In this document: piece after piece, positions 8,754 through 30,952 of the stretch
Numbering within the stretch: position 1 is the first letter of the stretch
Layout: each line of letters opens with the position of its first letter
DNA from: an archaeon
Lineage (GTDB): Archaea > Iainarchaeota > Iainarchaeia > Iainarchaeales > 1-14-0-10-31-34
Assembly: GCA_024277355.1 (NCBI GenBank)
Contig: JAJRVL010000004.1
Coordinates: 210,001 to 242,000 of the forward strand
Reading direction: 5' to 3'
Length of the DNA: 32,000 bases
Notes under the pieces: generated by a model
Databases searched by the model: none
Told to the model about the DNA's origin: nothing
The model's input: only the letters and a program-made list of their open reading frames with translations
Program-made: the position numbers and the translations under genes

Positions 8754-9036
8754 ACCATATTATAAAAAACCTTTAATAAGAAAAACAATCGCTGAAAAAA
8801 GTATTAAGACATTTACTGATAAAGCTAAAGGAGGGAATGTAGTTAGTGCATTTAGATACAAAATACAGCAGGGAAAATCAAGACCTAAAGGAAGATATCT
8901 TGGAAAATATGTAAGCAAAGAAAAAATGCTTGCAACACATATTTTTGATGCAAGAAAAGGAATTTACAGAAAATTAGGAAAACCTGTTTTAGTTGATGCA
9001 AGAATTTTCAGCCGGATTAAAGTTAAAAGAGAATAA
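8746..9036 (+). CDS. hypothetical small basic protein (96 aa from the ATG)
   Basis: The track ORF is 8731..9036. I prefer the ATG at 8746, preceded by an 'aaggag' SD at 8734-8739. Lys/Arg-rich, no recognisable family. Confidence 0.45.
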   Translation: MHKPYYKKPLIRKTIAEKSIKTFTDKAKGGNVVSAFRYKIQQGKSRPKGRYLGKYVSKEKMLATHIFDARKGIYRKLGKPVLVDARIFSRIKVKRE

Positions 9037-11140: not shown

Positions 11141-12175
11141 ATGGTAGAAATAAAAAGAGAAGGAATTATTCTTGAACCCACTAAATTAAGATTTGAAAAT
11201 AAAGGTGTATTTAATCCAGCGTGCATTAGAAAAGGAAAATATGTCCATATGTTTTACCGTGCATGGAATAAAGAAAACCGTTCAACTATAGGTTACTGTA
11301 AACTTGACGGTCCTTTAAAAGTTGTAGAAAGACTGGAAAAACCTTTAATGTTTCAGGAACAAGATTATGAATATAATCTGGAAGACCCAAGAATTGTTTT
11401 TCTTGAAGGAAAATATTATTTAAGTTATATTGCTTATGACGGCAAAAACGTACATATATCTTATGCTACAGGAAAAGATATTAAAAAATTAGAAAAAAAA
11501 GGAGTAATTTCTCCTCAAATAACATATCATGAAACAGCAGATATATTGAGAAAGTGCAGTTCTAATAAACTAAAAGATAGATATTTTCTTTTTGAATCTC
11601 ATTTTAATGATGCAGTTGGCGAAGACGCATTATTATGGGATAAGGATGCTTTCTTTTTTCCAAAAAAAATTAATGGAAAGTTTGCTTTAGTTCACAGAAT
11701 TCTTCCAGACATACAGGTAATTTATTTTAATGATTTTAAAGACCTTACATTAAATTTCTGGAAAAAACATTTTGAAAGGTTATATGATTTTACAATTCTT
11801 GAATCAAGATATTGGTATGAAAACAGAAATATTGGAGGAGGCTGTCCTCCAATAGAAACCGACAAAGGCTGGCTCTTGATTTATCATGCAGTAGATGATA
11901 TGAATCAGGGCAGAATATACAGAGCAGGAGTAGCTTTGCTGGATAAAACAAATCCTACAAAAGTAATAAGCCATTTAAGAGAACCGCTTTTTTCTCCAAA
12001 AGAAAAATGGGAAAAAAAAGGAAATATAGATAATGTTGTATTTCCTACTGGAACAGCAATATTTGATGACAGGCTTTTTATTTATTACGGCGCAGCAGAT
12101 GAAAGAATTGGCGCAGTTTCTCTTGACCTTAAAGAACTTTTAAATGAATTGTTAGCTAATAAAAATAACTTATAA
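11141..12175 (+). CDS. GH130-family glycoside phosphorylase/hydrolase (DUF377, 'PH1107-related glycosidase')
   Basis: 344 aa. 'GVFNPACIRKGKYVHMFYRA', 'EDPRIVFLEGKYYLSYIAYDG', 'WDKDAFFFP', 'GWLLIYHAV', 'IYYGAADERIG' fit a five-bladed beta-propeller GH130 pattern. Confidence 0.8.
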   Translation: MVEIKREGIILEPTKLRFENKGVFNPACIRKGKYVHMFYRAWNKENRSTIGYCKLDGPLKVVERLEKPLMFQEQDYEYNLEDPRIVFLEGKYYLSYIAYDGKNVHISYATGKDIKKLEKKGVISPQITYHETADILRKCSSNKLKDRYFLFESHFNDAVGEDALLWDKDAFFFPKKINGKFALVHRILPDIQVIYFNDFKDLTLNFWKKHFERLYDFTILESRYWYENRNIGGGCPPIETDKGWLLIYHAVDDMNQGRIYRAGVALLDKTNPTKVISHLREPLFSPKEKWEKKGNIDNVVFPTGTAIFDDRLFIYYGAADERIGAVSLDLKELLNELLANKNNL

Positions 12176-12255: not shown

Positions 12256-13437
12256 ATGGAAAAAAGAACAGACAGCAAAAAATCATGTTGGATACTGCAT
12301 ATGGGAACATTTCCTCCCAGAGAATGCGGCATAGCTACATTTACAAGAGATTTAACAAATGCAATGGATAAAAAATTCTCTCCTTTAATTAAATCAAAAA
12401 TACTTGCAATGAATGATAACTCTATTAACACTTATAATTACCCTAAAAATGTCTTGTTAAATTTAAATGAAGATAGTATTCAGGAATACATTGACACAGC
12501 AAAAAAAATCAATAAAATAGATGCAGTCAAACTAATTAGTATTCAGCATGAATTTGGTATTTTTGGAGGAGACTACGGAAGCCATTTAACTTCTTTTCTT
12601 AACGAAATAAACAAGCCTGTAATAATTACATTTCATTCTGTTTTACCAAAACCAAATAATCAACTAAAAAAAGTTGTTCAAAATTTAGCAGAAAAATCTG
12701 TGTGTTTTATTGTAATGACAAAAAACGCTGTTGAAATTCTCAGAAAAGATTATGAAATAAATAATCCTATTAAAGTTATTCCTCATGGAATACCAACTGT
12801 TTCATTTGGTTCAAACAAAAAAGAAAAAGAAAAAATCGGTTATAAAAATAACACTATTCTTTTAACTTTTGGAATGCTTGGCGCAGGCAAAGGCTGCGAA
12901 AATGTTATTGAGGCTTTACCTAAACTTGTAAAAAAATTCCCTAATCTTTTGTATTTAATTGTAGGAGAAACACACCCTATTGTAAGAATAAACGAAGGCG
13001 AAAAATACAGGAATTTTCTTAAAAATAAAGTAAAAGAATTAAACCTGCAAAAAAACGTAAAGTTTTACAATAAATATGTTAAGTTAAGTGAAATAATAAA
13101 ATACCTAAAGGCAGCTGATATTTATGTTTGCTCAAACACTGATCCAAATCAAGCAGTAAGCGGAACTTTAGCTTATGCAATGGGCTGCGGCAGAGCAGTT
13201 ATTTCCACTCCGTTTATACACGCAAAAGAAGCAGTTAATCCAAAAACAGGAATTTTAGTTGAATTTAATAATTCCCAGTCATTTGCAGATGCAATCCTAA
13301 AACTATTGTCAAATCCTGATTTAAAAGAAAAAATGAATAAAAATGCATATTTAAATACAAGGCATATGACTTGGCCTAATGTTGTAGAATCTTATATGGA
13401 GGTGTTTAACAAATATGCTGGGCTACATAAAATATGA
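12256..13437 (+). CDS. GT4-family glycosyltransferase (group 1)
   Basis: 393 aa. 'HMGTFPPRECGIATFTRDL' N-terminus and the GT-B C-terminal region 'LLYLIVGETHP', 'ADIYVCSNTDPNQAVSGTLAYAMGCGRAVISTP'. Confidence 0.85.
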   Translation: MEKRTDSKKSCWILHMGTFPPRECGIATFTRDLTNAMDKKFSPLIKSKILAMNDNSINTYNYPKNVLLNLNEDSIQEYIDTAKKINKIDAVKLISIQHEFGIFGGDYGSHLTSFLNEINKPVIITFHSVLPKPNNQLKKVVQNLAEKSVCFIVMTKNAVEILRKDYEINNPIKVIPHGIPTVSFGSNKKEKEKIGYKNNTILLTFGMLGAGKGCENVIEALPKLVKKFPNLLYLIVGETHPIVRINEGEKYRNFLKNKVKELNLQKNVKFYNKYVKLSEIIKYLKAADIYVCSNTDPNQAVSGTLAYAMGCGRAVISTPFIHAKEAVNPKTGILVEFNNSQSFADAILKLLSNPDLKEKMNKNAYLNTRHMTWPNVVESYMEVFNKYAGLHKI

Positions 13438-27204: not shown

Positions 27205-28344
27205 ATGCCTTCAAATGCCGATTATAAATATGGTGCAGCAGAAAAAAAATATCATGATGCAAAAACAGATATTGAAAAACTTGCAGCATTACAGGAAATG
27301 AAATCAACTGCACCAAAACATAAAGGAGCAGAAAAATTAAGGGCAGGAATAAGCAAGAAAATTTCTTTGCTGAAAAAACAAATAGAAAAACAAAAACAAG
27401 CTAAAACTGCAAGCGGTTCAGGATATTCAATTAATGTAAAAAAAGAAGGTTCAGGACAAATTGCAGTAATAGGCCTTCCTAATTCAGGCAAAAGTTCTTT
27501 GATTAATGCAATAAGCAATGCATCAATTCTTGTTGAAGACTATGAATTCACTACAACTAAACCTGAAATTGCAACATTAGACTACAAAGAAGCAATGGTT
27601 CAATTAGTTGAAGTGCCTGCAATAATTAAAGATTCATCTAAAGGAAAAGCAAACGGAACACAAATTCTTTCAATTATAAGAAATGCTGATGCAGTAGTAA
27701 TTGTATTAGAAGAAAAAAAAGCAGAAGAACAATTAAAAATAATTTTAAATGAAACAAATAATGCAAACATCAGGTTAAATCAAAGAAAACCTTTAATTAA
27801 AATAACTTCATCAAAATTTCCCGGAATAAATATTGCAGGAAAAAAATTTCTTAAAATAAAAGAAGAAACATTAATTGAATTTCTTAAAACTATGTCATTA
27901 CAAAACTGCAATGTAATAATAAATGAAAAAGCAGACTTAAAGAAAATTTCAGAAGTATTAGACAACAGAATAGTATACAAAAAAGTGCTTGCAGTAACAA
28001 CAAAAGAAAAAAAAGAAAAAACTGAATTAAAGGATTTAGAAGGAAACAAAATTAATTCAATTTATTTTTCAAAAGAAAACATTCAGGAAATAAAAAAAGA
28101 AATTTTCTCTTTGCTGGATAAAATATTAATTTATACAAGAAAACCCGGAGAAAAAGAAAATTTAAATGAACCATTAGTTCTACCTAAAGGAACAACAGTA
28201 AGCAAAGTTGCAGGAATACTTCACAGAGATTTTGCTCAAAACTTAAAGTATGTTAAAGTATGGGGTTCAGGTTCATTTCCCGGACAAAAAGTATCAAAAA
28301 ACTTTAAACTGCAGAACGGAGACTTAATTGAAGTTTATTCTTAA
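27205..28344 (+). CDS. DRG-family GTP-binding protein with a C-terminal TGS domain (G3/G4 motifs degenerate)
   Basis: 379 aa. P-loop 'GLPNSGKSS', G2 'YEFTT', TGS 'ILIYTRKPGE...LQNGDLIEV'. The DxxG position reads 'EVPA' and the NKxD position reads 'TKEK'. Confidence 0.85.
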   Translation: MPSNADYKYGAAEKKYHDAKTDIEKLAALQEMKSTAPKHKGAEKLRAGISKKISLLKKQIEKQKQAKTASGSGYSINVKKEGSGQIAVIGLPNSGKSSLINAISNASILVEDYEFTTTKPEIATLDYKEAMVQLVEVPAIIKDSSKGKANGTQILSIIRNADAVVIVLEEKKAEEQLKIILNETNNANIRLNQRKPLIKITSSKFPGINIAGKKFLKIKEETLIEFLKTMSLQNCNVIINEKADLKKISEVLDNRIVYKKVLAVTTKEKKEKTELKDLEGNKINSIYFSKENIQEIKKEIFSLLDKILIYTRKPGEKENLNEPLVLPKGTTVSKVAGILHRDFAQNLKYVKVWGSGSFPGQKVSKNFKLQNGDLIEVYS

Positions 28345-29606
28345 AACTTAAATTCAGTTACTTCTGATTCTTCTTTTGGCTTAAAAAATTTTTTTCTGTT
28401 ATTAAATAAAATTAATCCAGCAAGCAAAACAGCTAAACCAATAATTATTGTTCCAAAATCAAATGGTTTTTGTTCAACAAAATCAGAAGAAATTATTATT
28501 ATTGCATCATTTTTTGCTTTTTGTGCAAAAGAAACAGATTTAAGATATCTTTTTTGTTCAAAAGCTTTTTCTGCTTCAGAAAAATTTTTCTTTAAAGAAG
28601 AAACTTTTTCCTGTTCTTTCCAAAAAGGAGACTTTTCTTCATTTACAATAAAAGAATAAGCAGCATCTAAACTATAAAAATTATTTTTTGTTTTTGAATA
28701 AAAACTTTTATCTTCAGAATAAATTTCATTATAAGCTGAATTCCTTTCAGTCATTAAAGAAATATTTTCTGTCCATGAATTAACCTGAGAATTTGCTTTA
28801 GAATAAATTTCTTCTATTCTTTGTGAGACGCTTTCAGACAAAGAAAAAATTGAATCAATTGAATTTAATTGCTGGGGTTCATTAGCTAAAGCCAAAAATT
28901 GCTGTTTATCTAAAGAATCAATTTCTGAATCAGAAATTAATTTTTTTAATTCAATTACATGCAGAGAATAATCTAATTTTAAATCCTTGAATTCCTGCAG
29001 TAAAGAAAAAACTAAATCATATTTTTCTTTTAATTTATCAGTGTTTTCAGTTGAAGGATTAAAAGTAAAATCTGACTCCAAAGAAATAGCTGAATCAAAA
29101 GCCAATTCAATTTCATTGGATTTATCACTCATAACAGAAAGCATTGAATTCATTAAATCAACTTTATTTCTTATTTCAGTGTTAATTGTCCCCTGCTTAA
29201 TTGAATTCAATTTAAATGGAACATCAGAAGAAAGAATTTTAGTTAAAGTATTAAATTTTCCTTTATTTGAATTAGAAAACATCCATTGCGAAGTTCCTTT
29301 ATAAGAATTAATTGAATACAAAACATAAGCCGTTCTGAATAACTTCCTGTTAATTGAAGAAGAATCAACAATAGTTTTTTCTTTTGAAGGAACAGCAGCA
29401 AAACCAGTTGGAGTTCTTTCAGACAACAAAACTATAACCCAATAATTGTTTTCACCTGACTTAACAAAAAAAGGAGTTTCACTAAAAGACTGGTTTTCCT
29501 CTAAATAATGTGCTTCTGAAGCAAAAAAAATCTTTACTTCAGCTGAAGACAAAGAATAACCAAAACCAATAATTAATAACAAAAATAACACTGTTAATTT
29601 ATTCAT
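28341..29606 (-). CDS. hypothetical secreted/surface protein (signal peptide plus C-terminal TM anchor)
   Basis: 421 aa. N-terminal 'LTVLFLLLIIGFGYSLSSA' and C-terminal 'IIIGLAVLLAGLILF' followed by 'NNRKK'. S/N/E-rich ectodomain. Confidence 0.6.
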   Translation of the reverse strand: MNKLTVLFLLLIIGFGYSLSSAEVKIFFASEAHYLEENQSFSETPFFVKSGENNYWVIVLLSERTPTGFAAVPSKEKTIVDSSSINRKLFRTAYVLYSINSYKGTSQWMFSNSNKGKFNTLTKILSSDVPFKLNSIKQGTINTEIRNKVDLMNSMLSVMSDKSNEIELAFDSAISLESDFTFNPSTENTDKLKEKYDLVFSLLQEFKDLKLDYSLHVIELKKLISDSEIDSLDKQQFLALANEPQQLNSIDSIFSLSESVSQRIEEIYSKANSQVNSWTENISLMTERNSAYNEIYSEDKSFYSKTKNNFYSLDAAYSFIVNEEKSPFWKEQEKVSSLKKNFSEAEKAFEQKRYLKSVSFAQKAKNDAIIIISSDFVEQKPFDFGTIIIGLAVLLAGLILFNNRKKFFKPKEESEVTEFKF

Positions 29607-29711
29607 TTAAACCATTTCCTTCAATAAAATAGAATAACATTAAATATAATCTTTTGCATTTCAACACAATAAATAAAAACAGCTCTATATTAATTTCTTT
29701 ATTAAGCAGCA

Positions 29712-29804
29712 TCGCGATTTCGCTCGCGAGCCACGAGGCGCGGGATAAACCCGCGCTAGCACGACCTTGTGTCGTGCACTGGCATAAATCGACAGTGGCG
29801 ATTT
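29712..29804 (+). ncRNA. GC-rich multi-hairpin element of unknown family, contiguous with the tRNA-Trp 5' end (structured leader or separate sRNA)
   Basis: 55 G+C in the 90 nt 29711-29800, in an otherwise very AT-rich window. Hairpins: 29712-29729 (6 bp), 29738-29756 (gcgcggg/cccgcgc, 7 bp), 29759-29777 (gcacgac/gtcgtgc, 7 bp), 29786-29804 (aaatcg/cgattt, 6 bp). A 4-bp stem 29730-33/29780-83 encloses the two 7-bp hairpins. Track ORFs here are on both strands and look spurious. The strand call is tentative. Confidence 0.4.
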
Positions 29805-29965
29805 GGGGATATGGGGTAATGGTATCCCGCTTGGCTCCAGACAACTTTTTTCAAAAAAAAGTTGTATCAAAAAAACCTTTTTAGAAAAAAGGTTTAACAA
29901 AAACACAATTTTTGAAAAAGAAAGGCAGCAACTAAGCAATCTGGGTTCGATTCCCAGTATCCCCA
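29805..29965 (+). tRNA. tRNA-Trp: tRNA-Trp (anticodon CCA) with a 90-nt intron at the canonical 37/38 position; CCA not encoded
   Basis: Acceptor ggggata/tatcccc (7 bp). D arm ggg(t)-aatggta-(t)ccc. Anticodon arm cttgg-CTCCAGA-ctaag, with CCA at 29837-39. Variable region 'caat'. T arm ctggg-ttcgatt-cccag. Discriminator A at 29965. Exon 1 is 29805-29840, the intron ~29841-29930, exon 2 29931-29965. Confidence 0.9.
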
Positions 29966-29966
29966 A

Positions 29967-30052
29967 TAACGGTTTCGTCCGTTAACACCAAAACACGACT
30001 TCGCTTAAATCTTTGCAAGCAAAGATTTATCAAAACAAGAGATAAATCTCTT
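29967..30052. terminator. three hairpins between the convergent tRNA-Trp and metF-like gene (probable terminators/processing structures)
   Basis: 29967-29984 is 'taacgg-tttcgt-ccgtta'. 30006-30029 is 'taaatctttgc-aa-gcaaagattta' (11 bp). 30037-30052 is 'aagagat-aa-atctctt'. On the minus strand the last hairpin is followed by 'gtttt'. Confidence 0.35.
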
Positions 30053-30085
30053 ATGCTCAGTCCTGCTGTAAAAATAGATTAAATT

Positions 30086-30952
30086 CTAATCATTGTTTAG
30101 CTTTTCAGCTAACTCAACACAATAATCAAGATTATGCAGAAAAATTTCTTCTACATTTAAAGCAACAGGAACTGAAATATTATTTTCTTTATTAAAATCT
30201 TTTATGTCAGTCCATACTTTTTTTGCAATTTCAATTGAATTTTTAACTGCATTATTTTCTTCTTTAAAAAAATTTTTTTCTGTTTCTTCAGGTATTTCTA
30301 CTCCAAGCCATTTCATGAAATATAATTCTCTTGAATCAGAAACAGGACAAAAACTCAGGAAAACTTTTGCAGGAGTAATTTTATTTTCATTGCATAAATC
30401 ATTATATTCAGCTAAAACTTTTTTTGTGTTAATTGATTCAAACAAAACCTGTGAAGTAAAAAAATCTGCTCCAGAAACAGTTTTATTAAACATTCTTTTT
30501 GCTTCATTTTCCCTTGAAGGAATCATAATATTCCCGATTTTTATTCCTTTAATATTTTTTGCTTTGTTGTTTGCTTCATTTACTGTTAAACCTGAATAAG
30601 AAATATGATCAAAATTTCCTCCGACAAAAACAAAATTATTAATCTTGAATTCATTAATACTTTTATTTATCCATAAATCAAATTCATTTATTCCTTTGCA
30701 GTGAACTACAACCTTATTTTCAATTATTTTTTTTCCTGTTAAATCATTTAATTCTTTTCCAAATTCACAGGCACGAATGTTTCTGTAATAAGGTTTTCCT
30801 AAACGGTTTTCGTCAATTATTTCAGGAATATTAATTAAATCAGGTTTCATTGAATTAACTGCAGTAACAATTTTTTCAAGAATTTTTTTTCGGTAATTAT
30901 CAGAAGACAACGCACTAGGAGGAACGACTTCAAGCATTAATTCATCTTTCAA
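30086..30952 (-). CDS. methylenetetrahydrofolate reductase (MetF)-like protein
   Basis: 288 aa. 'LEVVPPS' N-terminus and 'SGADFFTSQVLFE' (equivalent to the MTHFR 'GAD..iTQ.fFd' motif). An 'aggtga' SD overlaps the upstream stop codon. Confidence 0.65.
   Translation of the reverse strand: MKDELMLEVVPPSALSSDNYRKKILEKIVTAVNSMKPDLINIPEIIDENRLGKPYYRNIRACEFGKELNDLTGKKIIENKVVVHCKGINEFDLWINKSINEFKINNFVFVGGNFDHISYSGLTVNEANNKAKNIKGIKIGNIMIPSRENEAKRMFNKTVSGADFFTSQVLFESINTKKVLAEYNDLCNENKITPAKVFLSFCPVSDSRELYFMKWLGVEIPEETEKNFFKEENNAVKNSIEIAKKVWTDIKDFNKENNISVPVALNVEEIFLHNLDYCVELAEKLNND

Follow-up and report, generated by a model that had tools for sequence, protein, structure and literature searches.

Directly upstream of a tRNA-Trp gene in the 32-kb stretch of archaeal DNA analyzed here (the window), AT-rich sequence gives way to a short GC-rich island. 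What is this island: an RNA in its own right, a part of the tRNA-Trp precursor, or an element that acts as DNA? An earlier reading of the sequence (the original prediction) saw in it one ~90-nt RNA with four hairpins and a three-way junction, fused to the 5' end of the tRNA. We compared the locus with its counterparts in related archaea, and this led us to a different view.

A GC-rich, noncoding island abuts the tRNA-Trp gene

Between 29711 and 29800, 55 of 90 nucleotides are G or C. Across 90-nt windows of the 32 kb the mean count is 25.0 (standard deviation, 5.0), and the next-best value elsewhere is 41. In a scan with 60-nt windows the GC fraction peaked at 0.67 in the island, against a mean of 0.278 (standard deviation, 0.066), and there was no second noncoding GC island in the window. 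The window as a whole is 27.8% G+C, the flanks of the island are 18 to 26% GC, and the island ends exactly where the tRNA-Trp gene begins (29805). The original prediction had counted and placed this island correctly. The hairpin sequences that it named, a GCCA/UGGC helix, an ATAAAT at 29784 to 29789, and the sequence TATATTAA at 29686 to 29693 were likewise all found as described. The features of the locus are as follows.

29669 to 29679, + strand: candidate TATA box ATAAATAAAAA; predicted start at about 29700 to 29706, just before GCAGCA
29686 to 29693, + strand: alternative TATA-like box TATATTAA; predicted start at about 29713 to 29718, inside H1
29706 to 29711, + strand: 5' motif GCAGCA; pairs with UGCUGU (30064 to 30069) at the trailer end, probability 0.92 in the full-length fold
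29712 to 29729, + strand: hairpin H1, UCGCGA-UUUCGC-UCGCGA; 6 bp, 6-nt loop, probability 0.86 to 0.99
29738 to 29756, + strand: hairpin H2, GCGCGGG-AUAAA-CCCGCGC; 7 bp, 5-nt loop, probability 0.97 to 1.0; part of the double-hairpin module
29759 to 29777, + strand: hairpin H3, GCACGAC-CUUGU-GUCGUGC; 7 bp, 5-nt loop, probability 0.97 to 1.0; joined to H2 by a UA linker (29757 and 29758)
29777 to 29804, + strand: 28-mer CACUGGCAUAAAUCGACAGUGGCGAUUU; sequence conserved, fold ambiguous
29805 to 29965, + strand: tRNA-Trp(CCA); Rfam RF00005, 47.9 bits; anticodon loop CUCCAGA
29967 to 29984, + strand: H1-type trailer hairpin, UAACGG-UUUCGU-CCGUUA; present in the minimum free energy (MFE) and centroid structures of the trailer
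29994 to 30065, + strand: terminal trailer hairpin, CA.GACU / AGUC.UG; loop with two inserted hairpins (30006 to 30029 and 30037 to 30052)

The tRNA gene consists of exon 1 (29805 to 29840), a 90-nt intron (29841 to 29930), and exon 2 (29931 to 29965), with no encoded CCA. Its intron is AU-rich and lies at position 37/38, with a junction that is ambiguous by one A, and contains no C/D boxes. ARAGORN missed the gene because of the 90-nt intron.

At the Rfam gathering threshold, the tRNA at 29805 to 29965 was the sole match in the window. A scan of 29500 to 30200 with Rfam 15 at an E value of ≤10 returned nothing overlapping 29705 to 29800. Such a scan had been proposed together with the original prediction, and at neither threshold did a family match the element. 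The tRNA model RF00005 matched 29805 to 29965 only, with no cloverleaf across the GC-rich element, whose hairpins are of 7-bp/5-nt and 6-bp/6-nt size. No C box was found on the + strand of 29650 to 30080, even with one mismatch allowed, and there was no CUGA (D box) either. H/ACA features were also absent: the stems of H1 to H3 are perfect and unbroken, with small loops at their ends and none inside, and the sole ACA (29792 to 29794) is inside alternative hairpins and not 3' of a stem. These scans and box searches bear out the earlier statement that the element has no cloverleaf and no C/D, H/ACA, SRP, or RNase P motifs. RNase P RNA, SRP RNA, 5S rRNA, and a split-tRNA half were considered and rejected, with no conserved motifs and no Rfam hint for any of them. 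Literature searches did not find a description of such a leader. The data support an element that is GC-rich, strongly folding, and noncoding.

Orthologous tRNA-Trp loci in related archaea

The genes around the element are archaeal and include a DRG-type GTPase with a TGS domain and a MetE-like protein, among others; none of the genes in the window is for RNA processing. The nearest genome matches are DPANN metagenome-assembled genomes labeled Micrarchaeota, Diapherotrites, or Iainarchaeum, and two flanking proteins of the window have no exact matches on record. When genome contigs were searched with the DRG GTPase, the closest relative's contig stopped short of the tRNA and the others were too distant. 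A metagenome scan with the tRNA 5' exon yielded one locus (L014). The 421-aa protein encoded by the divergent neighbor gene has 12 homologues (64 to 72% identity), from whose contigs came another nine distinct orthologous loci as well as duplicates. Eleven orthologous loci from a DPANN clade entered the comparison. One tRNA locus per genome, that of tRNA-Trp, was compared.

At every orthologous locus, tRNA-Trp lies beside the 421-aa gene and has an intron of roughly 60 to 140 nt. The lineages are about equidistant (60 to 79% identity in the neighbor protein), except for L015 and L027, which are 94% identical. None of them stands out as a near relative of the window; its 421-aa protein is 68 to 69% identical to that of L024, whose leader is arranged in the same way.

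Three hairpins are conserved through compensatory changes

The leader (29705 to 29804) folds at -42.9 kcal/mol (z of about -3.0 to -3.2) as the + strand, and its complement folds slightly better (-45.6 kcal/mol; z of -4.1). By partition function, the pairing probabilities of H1, H2, and H3 were 0.86 to 1.0, whether the leader was folded by itself or as part of a 375-nt precursor. In L024 the parts follow one another as they do in the window (H1, H2, UA, H3, 28-mer, tRNA), and the whole leader is 82% identical. Five stem pairs in H1 to H3 are changed on both sides between the two, and none is broken. An A-U pair of H1 is G-C in L024; the top three pairs of H2, all G-C in the window, are A-U, C-G, and C-G; and the innermost C-G pair of H3 is G-C. 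The loops also differ (UUUCGC/UUCCGU, AUAAA/GUAAA, and CUUGU/UUUAU for the window and L024, respectively).

Alignments of the modules gave the same picture. The double hairpin from four lineages was 96% paired, and 7 of its 14 pairs had changed on both sides; 0 of 500 shuffles were as high, and slid controls reached 23 to 48%. Fifteen paralogous 7-bp/5-nt hairpins with basal GYAC...GURC, taken from leaders, trailers, and introns, were also 96% paired, with 21 double-change cells. The pairing of H1 to H3 has been kept in evolution through compensatory changes, and the expectation that a structure would be conserved in relatives was upheld by both the L024 leader and these alignments. The sequence itself is conserved in the basal GYAC/GURC pairs and in the UA linker.

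The proposed fold as a whole did not fare so well. It had four hairpins, a helix (29730 to 29733 with 29780 to 29783) that enclosed H2 and H3 as a three-way junction, and a last hairpin that ended exactly at tRNA position -1. H1, H2, and H3 are solid (probability of at least 0.86 and compensated in L024), but the fourth hairpin is only one among competing folds. The last 27 nt of the leader have four mutually exclusive pairings with probabilities of 0.03 to 0.59, namely, AAAUCG/CGAUUU (hairpin 4), ACUG/CAGU, GCCAC/GUGGC, and GCCA/UGGC (the junction helix). The proposed fourth hairpin ranged from 0.08 to 0.59 and the junction helix from 0.13 to 0.37. An RNAalifold consensus of the window and L024 has four serial hairpins, with the fourth formed by ACUG (29778 to 29781) and CAGU (29793 to 29796), and no enclosing helix. 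Where the window has GCCAC, L024 has GCAAC. Because this C-to-A change in the 5' strand is uncompensated and the consensus fold lacks an enclosing helix, the junction is unsupported. The hairpin ending at -1 is not favored either: the consensus prefers ACUG/CAGU, and the sole substitution (G to A at 29791 in L024) weakens AAAUCG/CGAUUU.

One could still argue for a ~90-nt junction RNA, kept as a whole at the 5' end of the tRNA, from the single-sequence MFE structure, which has a closing helix around H2 and H3, and from the overall similarity of the L024 leader. However, the closing helices reach only 0.13 to 0.43 and compete with each other, and the unit is at the tRNA 5' position in only 2 of 10 lineages (see below). 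Together with the uncompensated change and the consensus fold, this makes such an RNA extremely unlikely.

The cassette occurs on either side of the tRNA gene and in either orientation

With a covariance model of the leader (R1), we searched 109 kb, made up of the window, 10 clade loci, and the more distant L002. The cassette or its remnants were found in these arrangements.

Window and L024: cassette H1-H2-UA-H3 upstream of the tRNA, in tRNA sense
L017: cassette in the trailer, antisense to the tRNA, with H1, H2, UA, and H3 recognizable; 55 bits, E value of 1.7e-11 (29.5 bits in sense)
L019: cassette in the trailer, in tRNA sense, directly after CCCCA, with a nearly identical H1 (UUCGCGGUUGCGUCCGCGAG); 26 bits
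L023: AT-rich decayed cassette copy in the trailer; 26.6 bits
L015: trailer, equal on both strands; 32.6 and 32.1 bits
L014: only a hairpin at the H3 position, of different sequence, plus the 28-mer; 29.8 bits

The antisense cassette of L017 includes the reverse complement of H3 and lies 41 nt after a co-oriented 162-aa open reading frame. The decayed copy in L023 looks like the outcome to be expected without maintenance. In L014 (largely), L021, L022, and L025, the cassette is reduced or missing. The leader is very short in L021, whose A-rich trailer is unstructured (-2.9 kcal/mol), and almost absent in L017. R1 found no further copies in the 109 kb, including the rest of the window, and in ~90 kb of clade DNA GC-rich perfect 7-bp hairpins were practically confined to the tRNA-Trp unit. 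Because the cassette is upstream, downstream in sense, downstream in antisense, or missing among the relatives, it is not a fixed leader. The original prediction of one discrete, conserved RNA fused to the tRNA 5' end therefore does not hold, since relatives carry the cassette in the trailer, in either orientation, or not at all.

Hairpins of the same type also lie inside the introns of L014 and L024, and there they are part of an RNA that is certainly transcribed. One 19-nt hairpin (GUACGGGACAAGCCCGUAC) is common to the L014 trailer and the L024 intron. The loops were seen in both orientations: ACAAG (four times) and CUUGU (H3 of the window), AUAAA (H2 of the window) and UUUAU (three times), GUAAA and UUUAC, UGAAA and UUUCA, and the H1-type UUUCGY and RCGAAA. 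H1-type hairpins with the inverted loop RCGAAA occur in L025, L015, and L017. Intron segments, too, have opposite orientations in different lineages. AT-rich noncoding DNA is known to mutate by small inversions at hairpins. The distribution of the cassette is mosaic and does not track the protein tree.

In the alignment of fifteen hairpins, G-U pairs were almost absent and A-C mismatches were as frequent as U-G. Therefore, there is no strand signal, so that perfect palindromes could also be kept at the DNA level, by templated correction between their arms. This leads to the main rival explanation, a selfish or neutral palindromic cassette that duplicates, inverts, and moves as DNA, has its arms kept perfect by templated repair, and has no RNA function. 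It would persist around tRNA-Trp only because insertions in a discarded leader, intron, or trailer do no harm. The three placements of the cassette (upstream sense, downstream sense, and downstream antisense) all speak for it, as do the loop types that each occur in both orientations, the near lack of G-U pairs, the inverted intron segments, and the mosaic distribution off the protein tree. However, 60% GC has been kept in a 28% GC genome across lineages with ~68% identical proteins, with five compensated stem changes, and the unmaintained L023 copy has decayed in both GC and pairing. Also, the rest of the 32-kb window and ~77 kb of the relatives' flanks are free of further copies, and no transposase-like gene is among the open reading frames of the window. 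We take this possibility seriously but think that it is probably not the answer. It overlaps the reading that we prefer (see Discussion), and the two differ in whether the pairing has any consequence in the RNA.

Another candidate is a discrete, stable small RNA carried along in the tRNA-Trp transcript. Like tRNA-linked snoRNAs, it would be freed by RNase P from an upstream position or by RNase Z from a downstream one, and it might replace the C/D guide of euryarchaeal tRNA-Trp introns. The cassette does always adjoin the tRNA-Trp gene, on one side or the other, the intron in the window is free of C/D boxes, and the GC-rich stems would stabilize a released fragment. Sequence conservation of the basal GYAC/GURC pairs and the UA linker would fit as well. 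However, the cassette in L017 is antisense to the tRNA. The loops and linkers, which are the sole single-stranded parts available for target recognition, are unconserved and flip orientation. The cassette is absent from L021, L022, L025, and largely L014, and it has no C/D or H/ACA features. We consider a small RNA unlikely.

Candidate promoters and the 28-mer next to the tRNA

Three TATA-like boxes precede the element. An archaeal TATA box is centered near -26. The TATATTAA box, which had been put forward as the promoter, is indeed present and resembles AGCTTATAAATATTTTT, found 95 to 140 nt upstream of the tRNA in L014, L019, and L025. However, it fits less well because its predicted start is inside H1. 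ATAAATAAAAA (29669 to 29679) fits better as a candidate, and the same CACAATAAATAAAAAC box is found ~32 nt before the tRNA in L017, a suitable distance for a tRNA that has almost no leader. There is no run of at least four T residues between the candidate boxes and the tRNA. Because of this and the direct abutment, the simplest reading is that the GC-rich element would be co-transcribed with tRNA-Trp as a leader of ~100 nt.

Other roles for this region were rejected. ATAAAT (29784 to 29789) as the tRNA promoter would put the start at about tRNA position +9, and L017 and L021, with their short leaders, have normal spacing; we agree with the earlier judgment that this sequence is too close to be a TATA box. 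The element is not the 5' untranslated region of the 421-aa gene, which runs divergently on the minus strand and has its own conserved TATA-like box 35 to 45 nt from the ATG, nearer to the gene than the element is. A replication origin, with dyad repeats like ORB elements, was rejected because there is no GC skew switch.

The 28-mer that abuts the tRNA differs from the hairpins in being conserved in sequence. It is identical in L014 (28 of 28 positions) and nearly so in L024 (27 of 28), whereas the introns are 50 to 54% identical and exon 1 of L024 is 89% identical. Seven other lineages have unrelated sequence at this position (≤57% identity). Most lineages with longer leaders do have some hairpin ending at or near -1, but the sequences differ. 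The window and L014 share identical exons and an identical 28-mer, although the L014 protein is closer to that of L024. Such a pattern points to mosaic evolution or exchange at the tRNA-Trp locus.

Might the region instead be a DNA regulatory element, made of operator palindromes for dimeric proteins or of cruciform sites, that controls the divergent 421-aa/tRNA-Trp promoter region? Archaeal repressors commonly bind just downstream of TATA boxes, and the element is just downstream of the candidate boxes. Its invariant outer half-sites (GCAC...GUGC) are strand symmetric, and the 28-mer is conserved in sequence without covariation. However, inner stem positions vary yet stay complementary, which a protein site does not require, and the same hairpins are found in the intron and trailers, far from promoters. 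The GC skew has no sign of an origin. This makes a regulatory element of this kind very improbable.

The trailer and its pairing with the leader

The trailer of the window is also structured (-24.3 kcal/mol; z of -3.9). An H1-type hairpin is at the same place after the tRNA in the window, L024, and L019. L015, L019, L024, and L025 keep the terminal stem motif CGACUUCR..YUCAGUCCUGCUG, in which one A-U pair has become G-C in L025. The part inserted in the terminal hairpin of the window shares 77% identity with a stretch that precedes the tRNA promoter in L014.

Leader and trailer are complementary to different extents. CAGCAC motifs homologous to the GCAGCA of the window, which aligns with them, begin the leaders of L024, L015, L022, and L025. 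In L024, a duplex of ~30 bp (-37.5 kcal/mol; z of -5.2) joins the leader's 5' end to the trailer's 3' end. In the window, leader-trailer complementarity is no better than that of shuffled sequence (z of -0.4), apart from the 6-bp GCAGCA/UGCUGU terminal helix. We rejected a leader-trailer processing stem, which is convincing in L024 only and absent in the window. A bulge-helix-bulge (BHB) at the leader-trailer or leader-acceptor junction was also rejected, there being none; the L024 duplex has only 1-nt bulges and 1-by-1 mismatches. The L024 duplex and the 6-bp closing helix of the window recall the leader-trailer stems of archaeal rRNA operons, which contain a BHB for the splicing endonuclease. 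However, the 3-nt bulges 4 bp apart that define those stems are absent from the tRNA-Trp leader-trailer pairing.

Discussion

With moderate confidence, we interpret the island as a co-transcribed cassette of self-contained stem-loops in the flanks of pre-tRNA-Trp that would be removed in processing, is evolutionarily mobile, and would have a role of structure only. The 5' flank of the tRNA-Trp transcription unit (29706 to 29804) would consist of the ~70-nt cassette (H1 and H2-UA-H3) followed by the 28-nt block that abuts +1. It would be transcribed with the tRNA from a promoter near 29669 to 29693 and cut off at 29804/29805 by a 5' maturation activity. In archaea this is generally RNase P. Each stem-loop would fold on itself and so keep a long flank from mispairing with the tRNA, and it may block exonucleases. 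Stem-loops would thus be tolerated and kept in the discarded parts of the precursor (leader, intron, and trailer), and the cassette would move within the locus by duplication, translocation, and inversion. Selection would keep only arm-to-arm pairing and leave loop sequence, orientation, and position relative to the tRNA free. The case for a cis element that acts by structure only is that pairing alone is conserved, while loops, orientation, and position vary. A purely structural role does not account for the conserved basal GYAC/GURC pairs or for the perfect conservation of the 28-mer.

The cassette is confined to a DPANN clade and patchy within it. It is also not required for tRNA-Trp as such. 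Any benefit is dispensable, because L021 has no structured leader or trailer and L017 has no leader.

The closest known parallels are the leaders and trailers of archaeal pre-tRNAs, which are substrates of RNase P and RNase Z. Like them, the element abuts +1, is apparently co-transcribed and discarded, and has a U at -1. Typical archaeal leaders are short and unstructured, whereas this one has ~100 nt and a GC content of 60% (28% for the genome), with perfect stem-loops under pairing constraint, and the same cassette serves as a trailer in related genomes. The stem-loops themselves resemble bacterial REP/BIME elements, which are GC-rich, near-perfect palindromes of ~20 to 40 nt that cluster in transcribed intergenic DNA in both orientations and are thought to stabilize RNA ends. 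However, a genome with REPs has tens to hundreds of dispersed copies, which are associated with RAYT transposases, whereas all copies in the ~109 kb are at tRNA-Trp; neither the covariance model nor a hairpin scan found dispersed REP- or MITE-like copies outside these loci. Another comparison is with the Hgc RNAs of Methanocaldococcus, which are in Rfam and were found by base composition. They too are GC islands in AT-rich DNA, but our element has no Rfam match at an E value of ≤10 and is not an independent gene with its own terminator. In Euryarchaeota (Haloferax), a box C/D guide RNA is within the tRNA-Trp intron (summarized in PMC7714728). The likeness is an extra structured RNA in the precursor of tRNA-Trp specifically. 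However, our element is in the leader and not the intron, has no C/D boxes on the tRNA strand of 29650 to 30080, and has no conserved single strand that could act as a guide. The element works like a pre-tRNA leader or trailer with REP-like stem-loops, and structured flanks of tRNA precursors are an already known kind of element.

More far-reaching versions can be imagined. The cassette and related hairpins might be undescribed, locus-confined mobile RNA modules that move among leader, intron, and trailer, for example, by RNA cutting and rejoining by a broad-specificity splicing endonuclease and a ligase, followed by fixation in DNA. Or they might be a stable, protein-binding small RNA, made stoichiometrically with tRNA-Trp in place of the intron C/D guide of other archaea. 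Even taken jointly, we give these two versions only a small probability.

What is unusual is the shuffling of one hairpin cassette between three parts of the same tRNA gene, its leader, intron, and trailer. If our interpretation is true, then discarded parts of an archaeal tRNA precursor can hold a stem-loop cassette that is selected for pairing but free in side, orientation, and loop. For scans of AT-rich archaeal or DPANN genomes that rely on GC islands, there is a caution here, because strong covariation in an island does not have to mean a discrete RNA gene of fixed architecture. The finding alone opens no long-standing question. Even so, about ten lineages with different arrangements offer a compact natural system for the effects of flanks on pre-tRNA folding, stability, and processing, in organisms that have a reduced RNA-processing machinery.

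A two-hairpin module found on either side of tRNA-Trp

We compared the trailer of the window with the orthologous tRNA-Trp loci of DPANN relatives. The trailer, the flank 3' of the tRNA, carries the following insert:

30010-30052: two-hairpin insert of the trailer, in the order hairpin, AUCAAAAC, hairpin

At one relative's locus, L014, the counterpart (approximately positions 8930-8975; 34 of 44 positions identical, 77%) lies upstream of the tRNA promoter. By sequence comparison, this insert is a second module, besides the hairpin cassette 5' of tRNA-Trp, with a changed side relative to the tRNA. Elsewhere in the window, a GC content of 48-52% (60-nt windows) was reached only at 685-781, 11832-11895, and 13136-13242, which overlap long ORFs (362-1279, 11141-12175, and 12256-13437, respectively).

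We also compared the leader (the 5' flank) with the trailer. On the tRNA-sense strand of L024, leader positions -125 to -86 form a duplex with trailer positions +11 to +57 that spans about 30 bp and has a folding energy of -37.5 kcal/mol (z score of -5.2). It joins the 5' end of the leader with the 3' end of the trailer, has bulges of only 1 nt, and resembles a processing stem enclosing the whole tRNA. Weaker duplexes were found in L015, L025, and L023 (z scores of about -2.5), and the same comparison found none of the L024 kind in the window.

The tRNA-Trp intron

The tRNA-Trp gene of the window was missed by an ARAGORN search. Its intron is as follows:

29841-29930: tRNA-Trp intron of 90 nt, AU-rich, with three hairpins

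Within it are T5 to T8 runs, which would normally resemble archaeal termination signals. We found no C/D boxes in this intron, whereas tRNA-Trp introns of Euryarchaeota have them.

When the introns of L015, L019, L021, L022, L023, L024, and L025 were compared, segments were seen to be flipped between lineages. The reverse complement of the L021 intron matched those of L019, L022, L023, and L024 with local scores of 69, 72, 49, and 42, respectively, but the forward orientation scored only 33, 25, 25, and 27. Against L025, L021 matched in the forward orientation (local score of 97). Reverse complementing the 3' part of the L025 intron yields the 5' part of the intron in L015.

The tRNA-Trp neighborhood and exchange of the tRNA segment

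The gene divergent from the tRNA unit always adjoins tRNA-Trp:

28341-29606, minus strand: 421-amino-acid protein without a Pfam domain

Its 12 homologues (64-72% identity) were confined to this clade in the search made. A conserved, nearly palindromic TCCTTTATTAATTTTTCC box lies 35-45 nt upstream of its ATG in L014, L015, L019, L021, L022, L023, L024, and L025 (window equivalent, about 29640-29655). Because its distance is also right for driving the tRNA unit in L015, L024, and L021, the box may be a bidirectional promoter of both.

Synteny is lost directly after the trailer (30070-30090 in the window, and the trailer ends of the relatives). Beyond it are convergent MTHFR-like and MetE-like genes in the window, a co-directional GT2 glycosyltransferase gene with a perfectly conserved promoter-like CTTTTATTCTAGTTCTGCTTTTTTA in most relatives, and small ORFs of unknown kind in L015, L017, and L025.

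Finally, between window 29777-29965 and L014 9072-9237, the tRNA exons and the 28-nt block upstream are 100% identical. However, the neighboring proteins share only 71-74% identity, with L014 nearer to L024 than to the window. This disparity in sequence identity suggests that the tRNA segment was recombined or exchanged between lineages.
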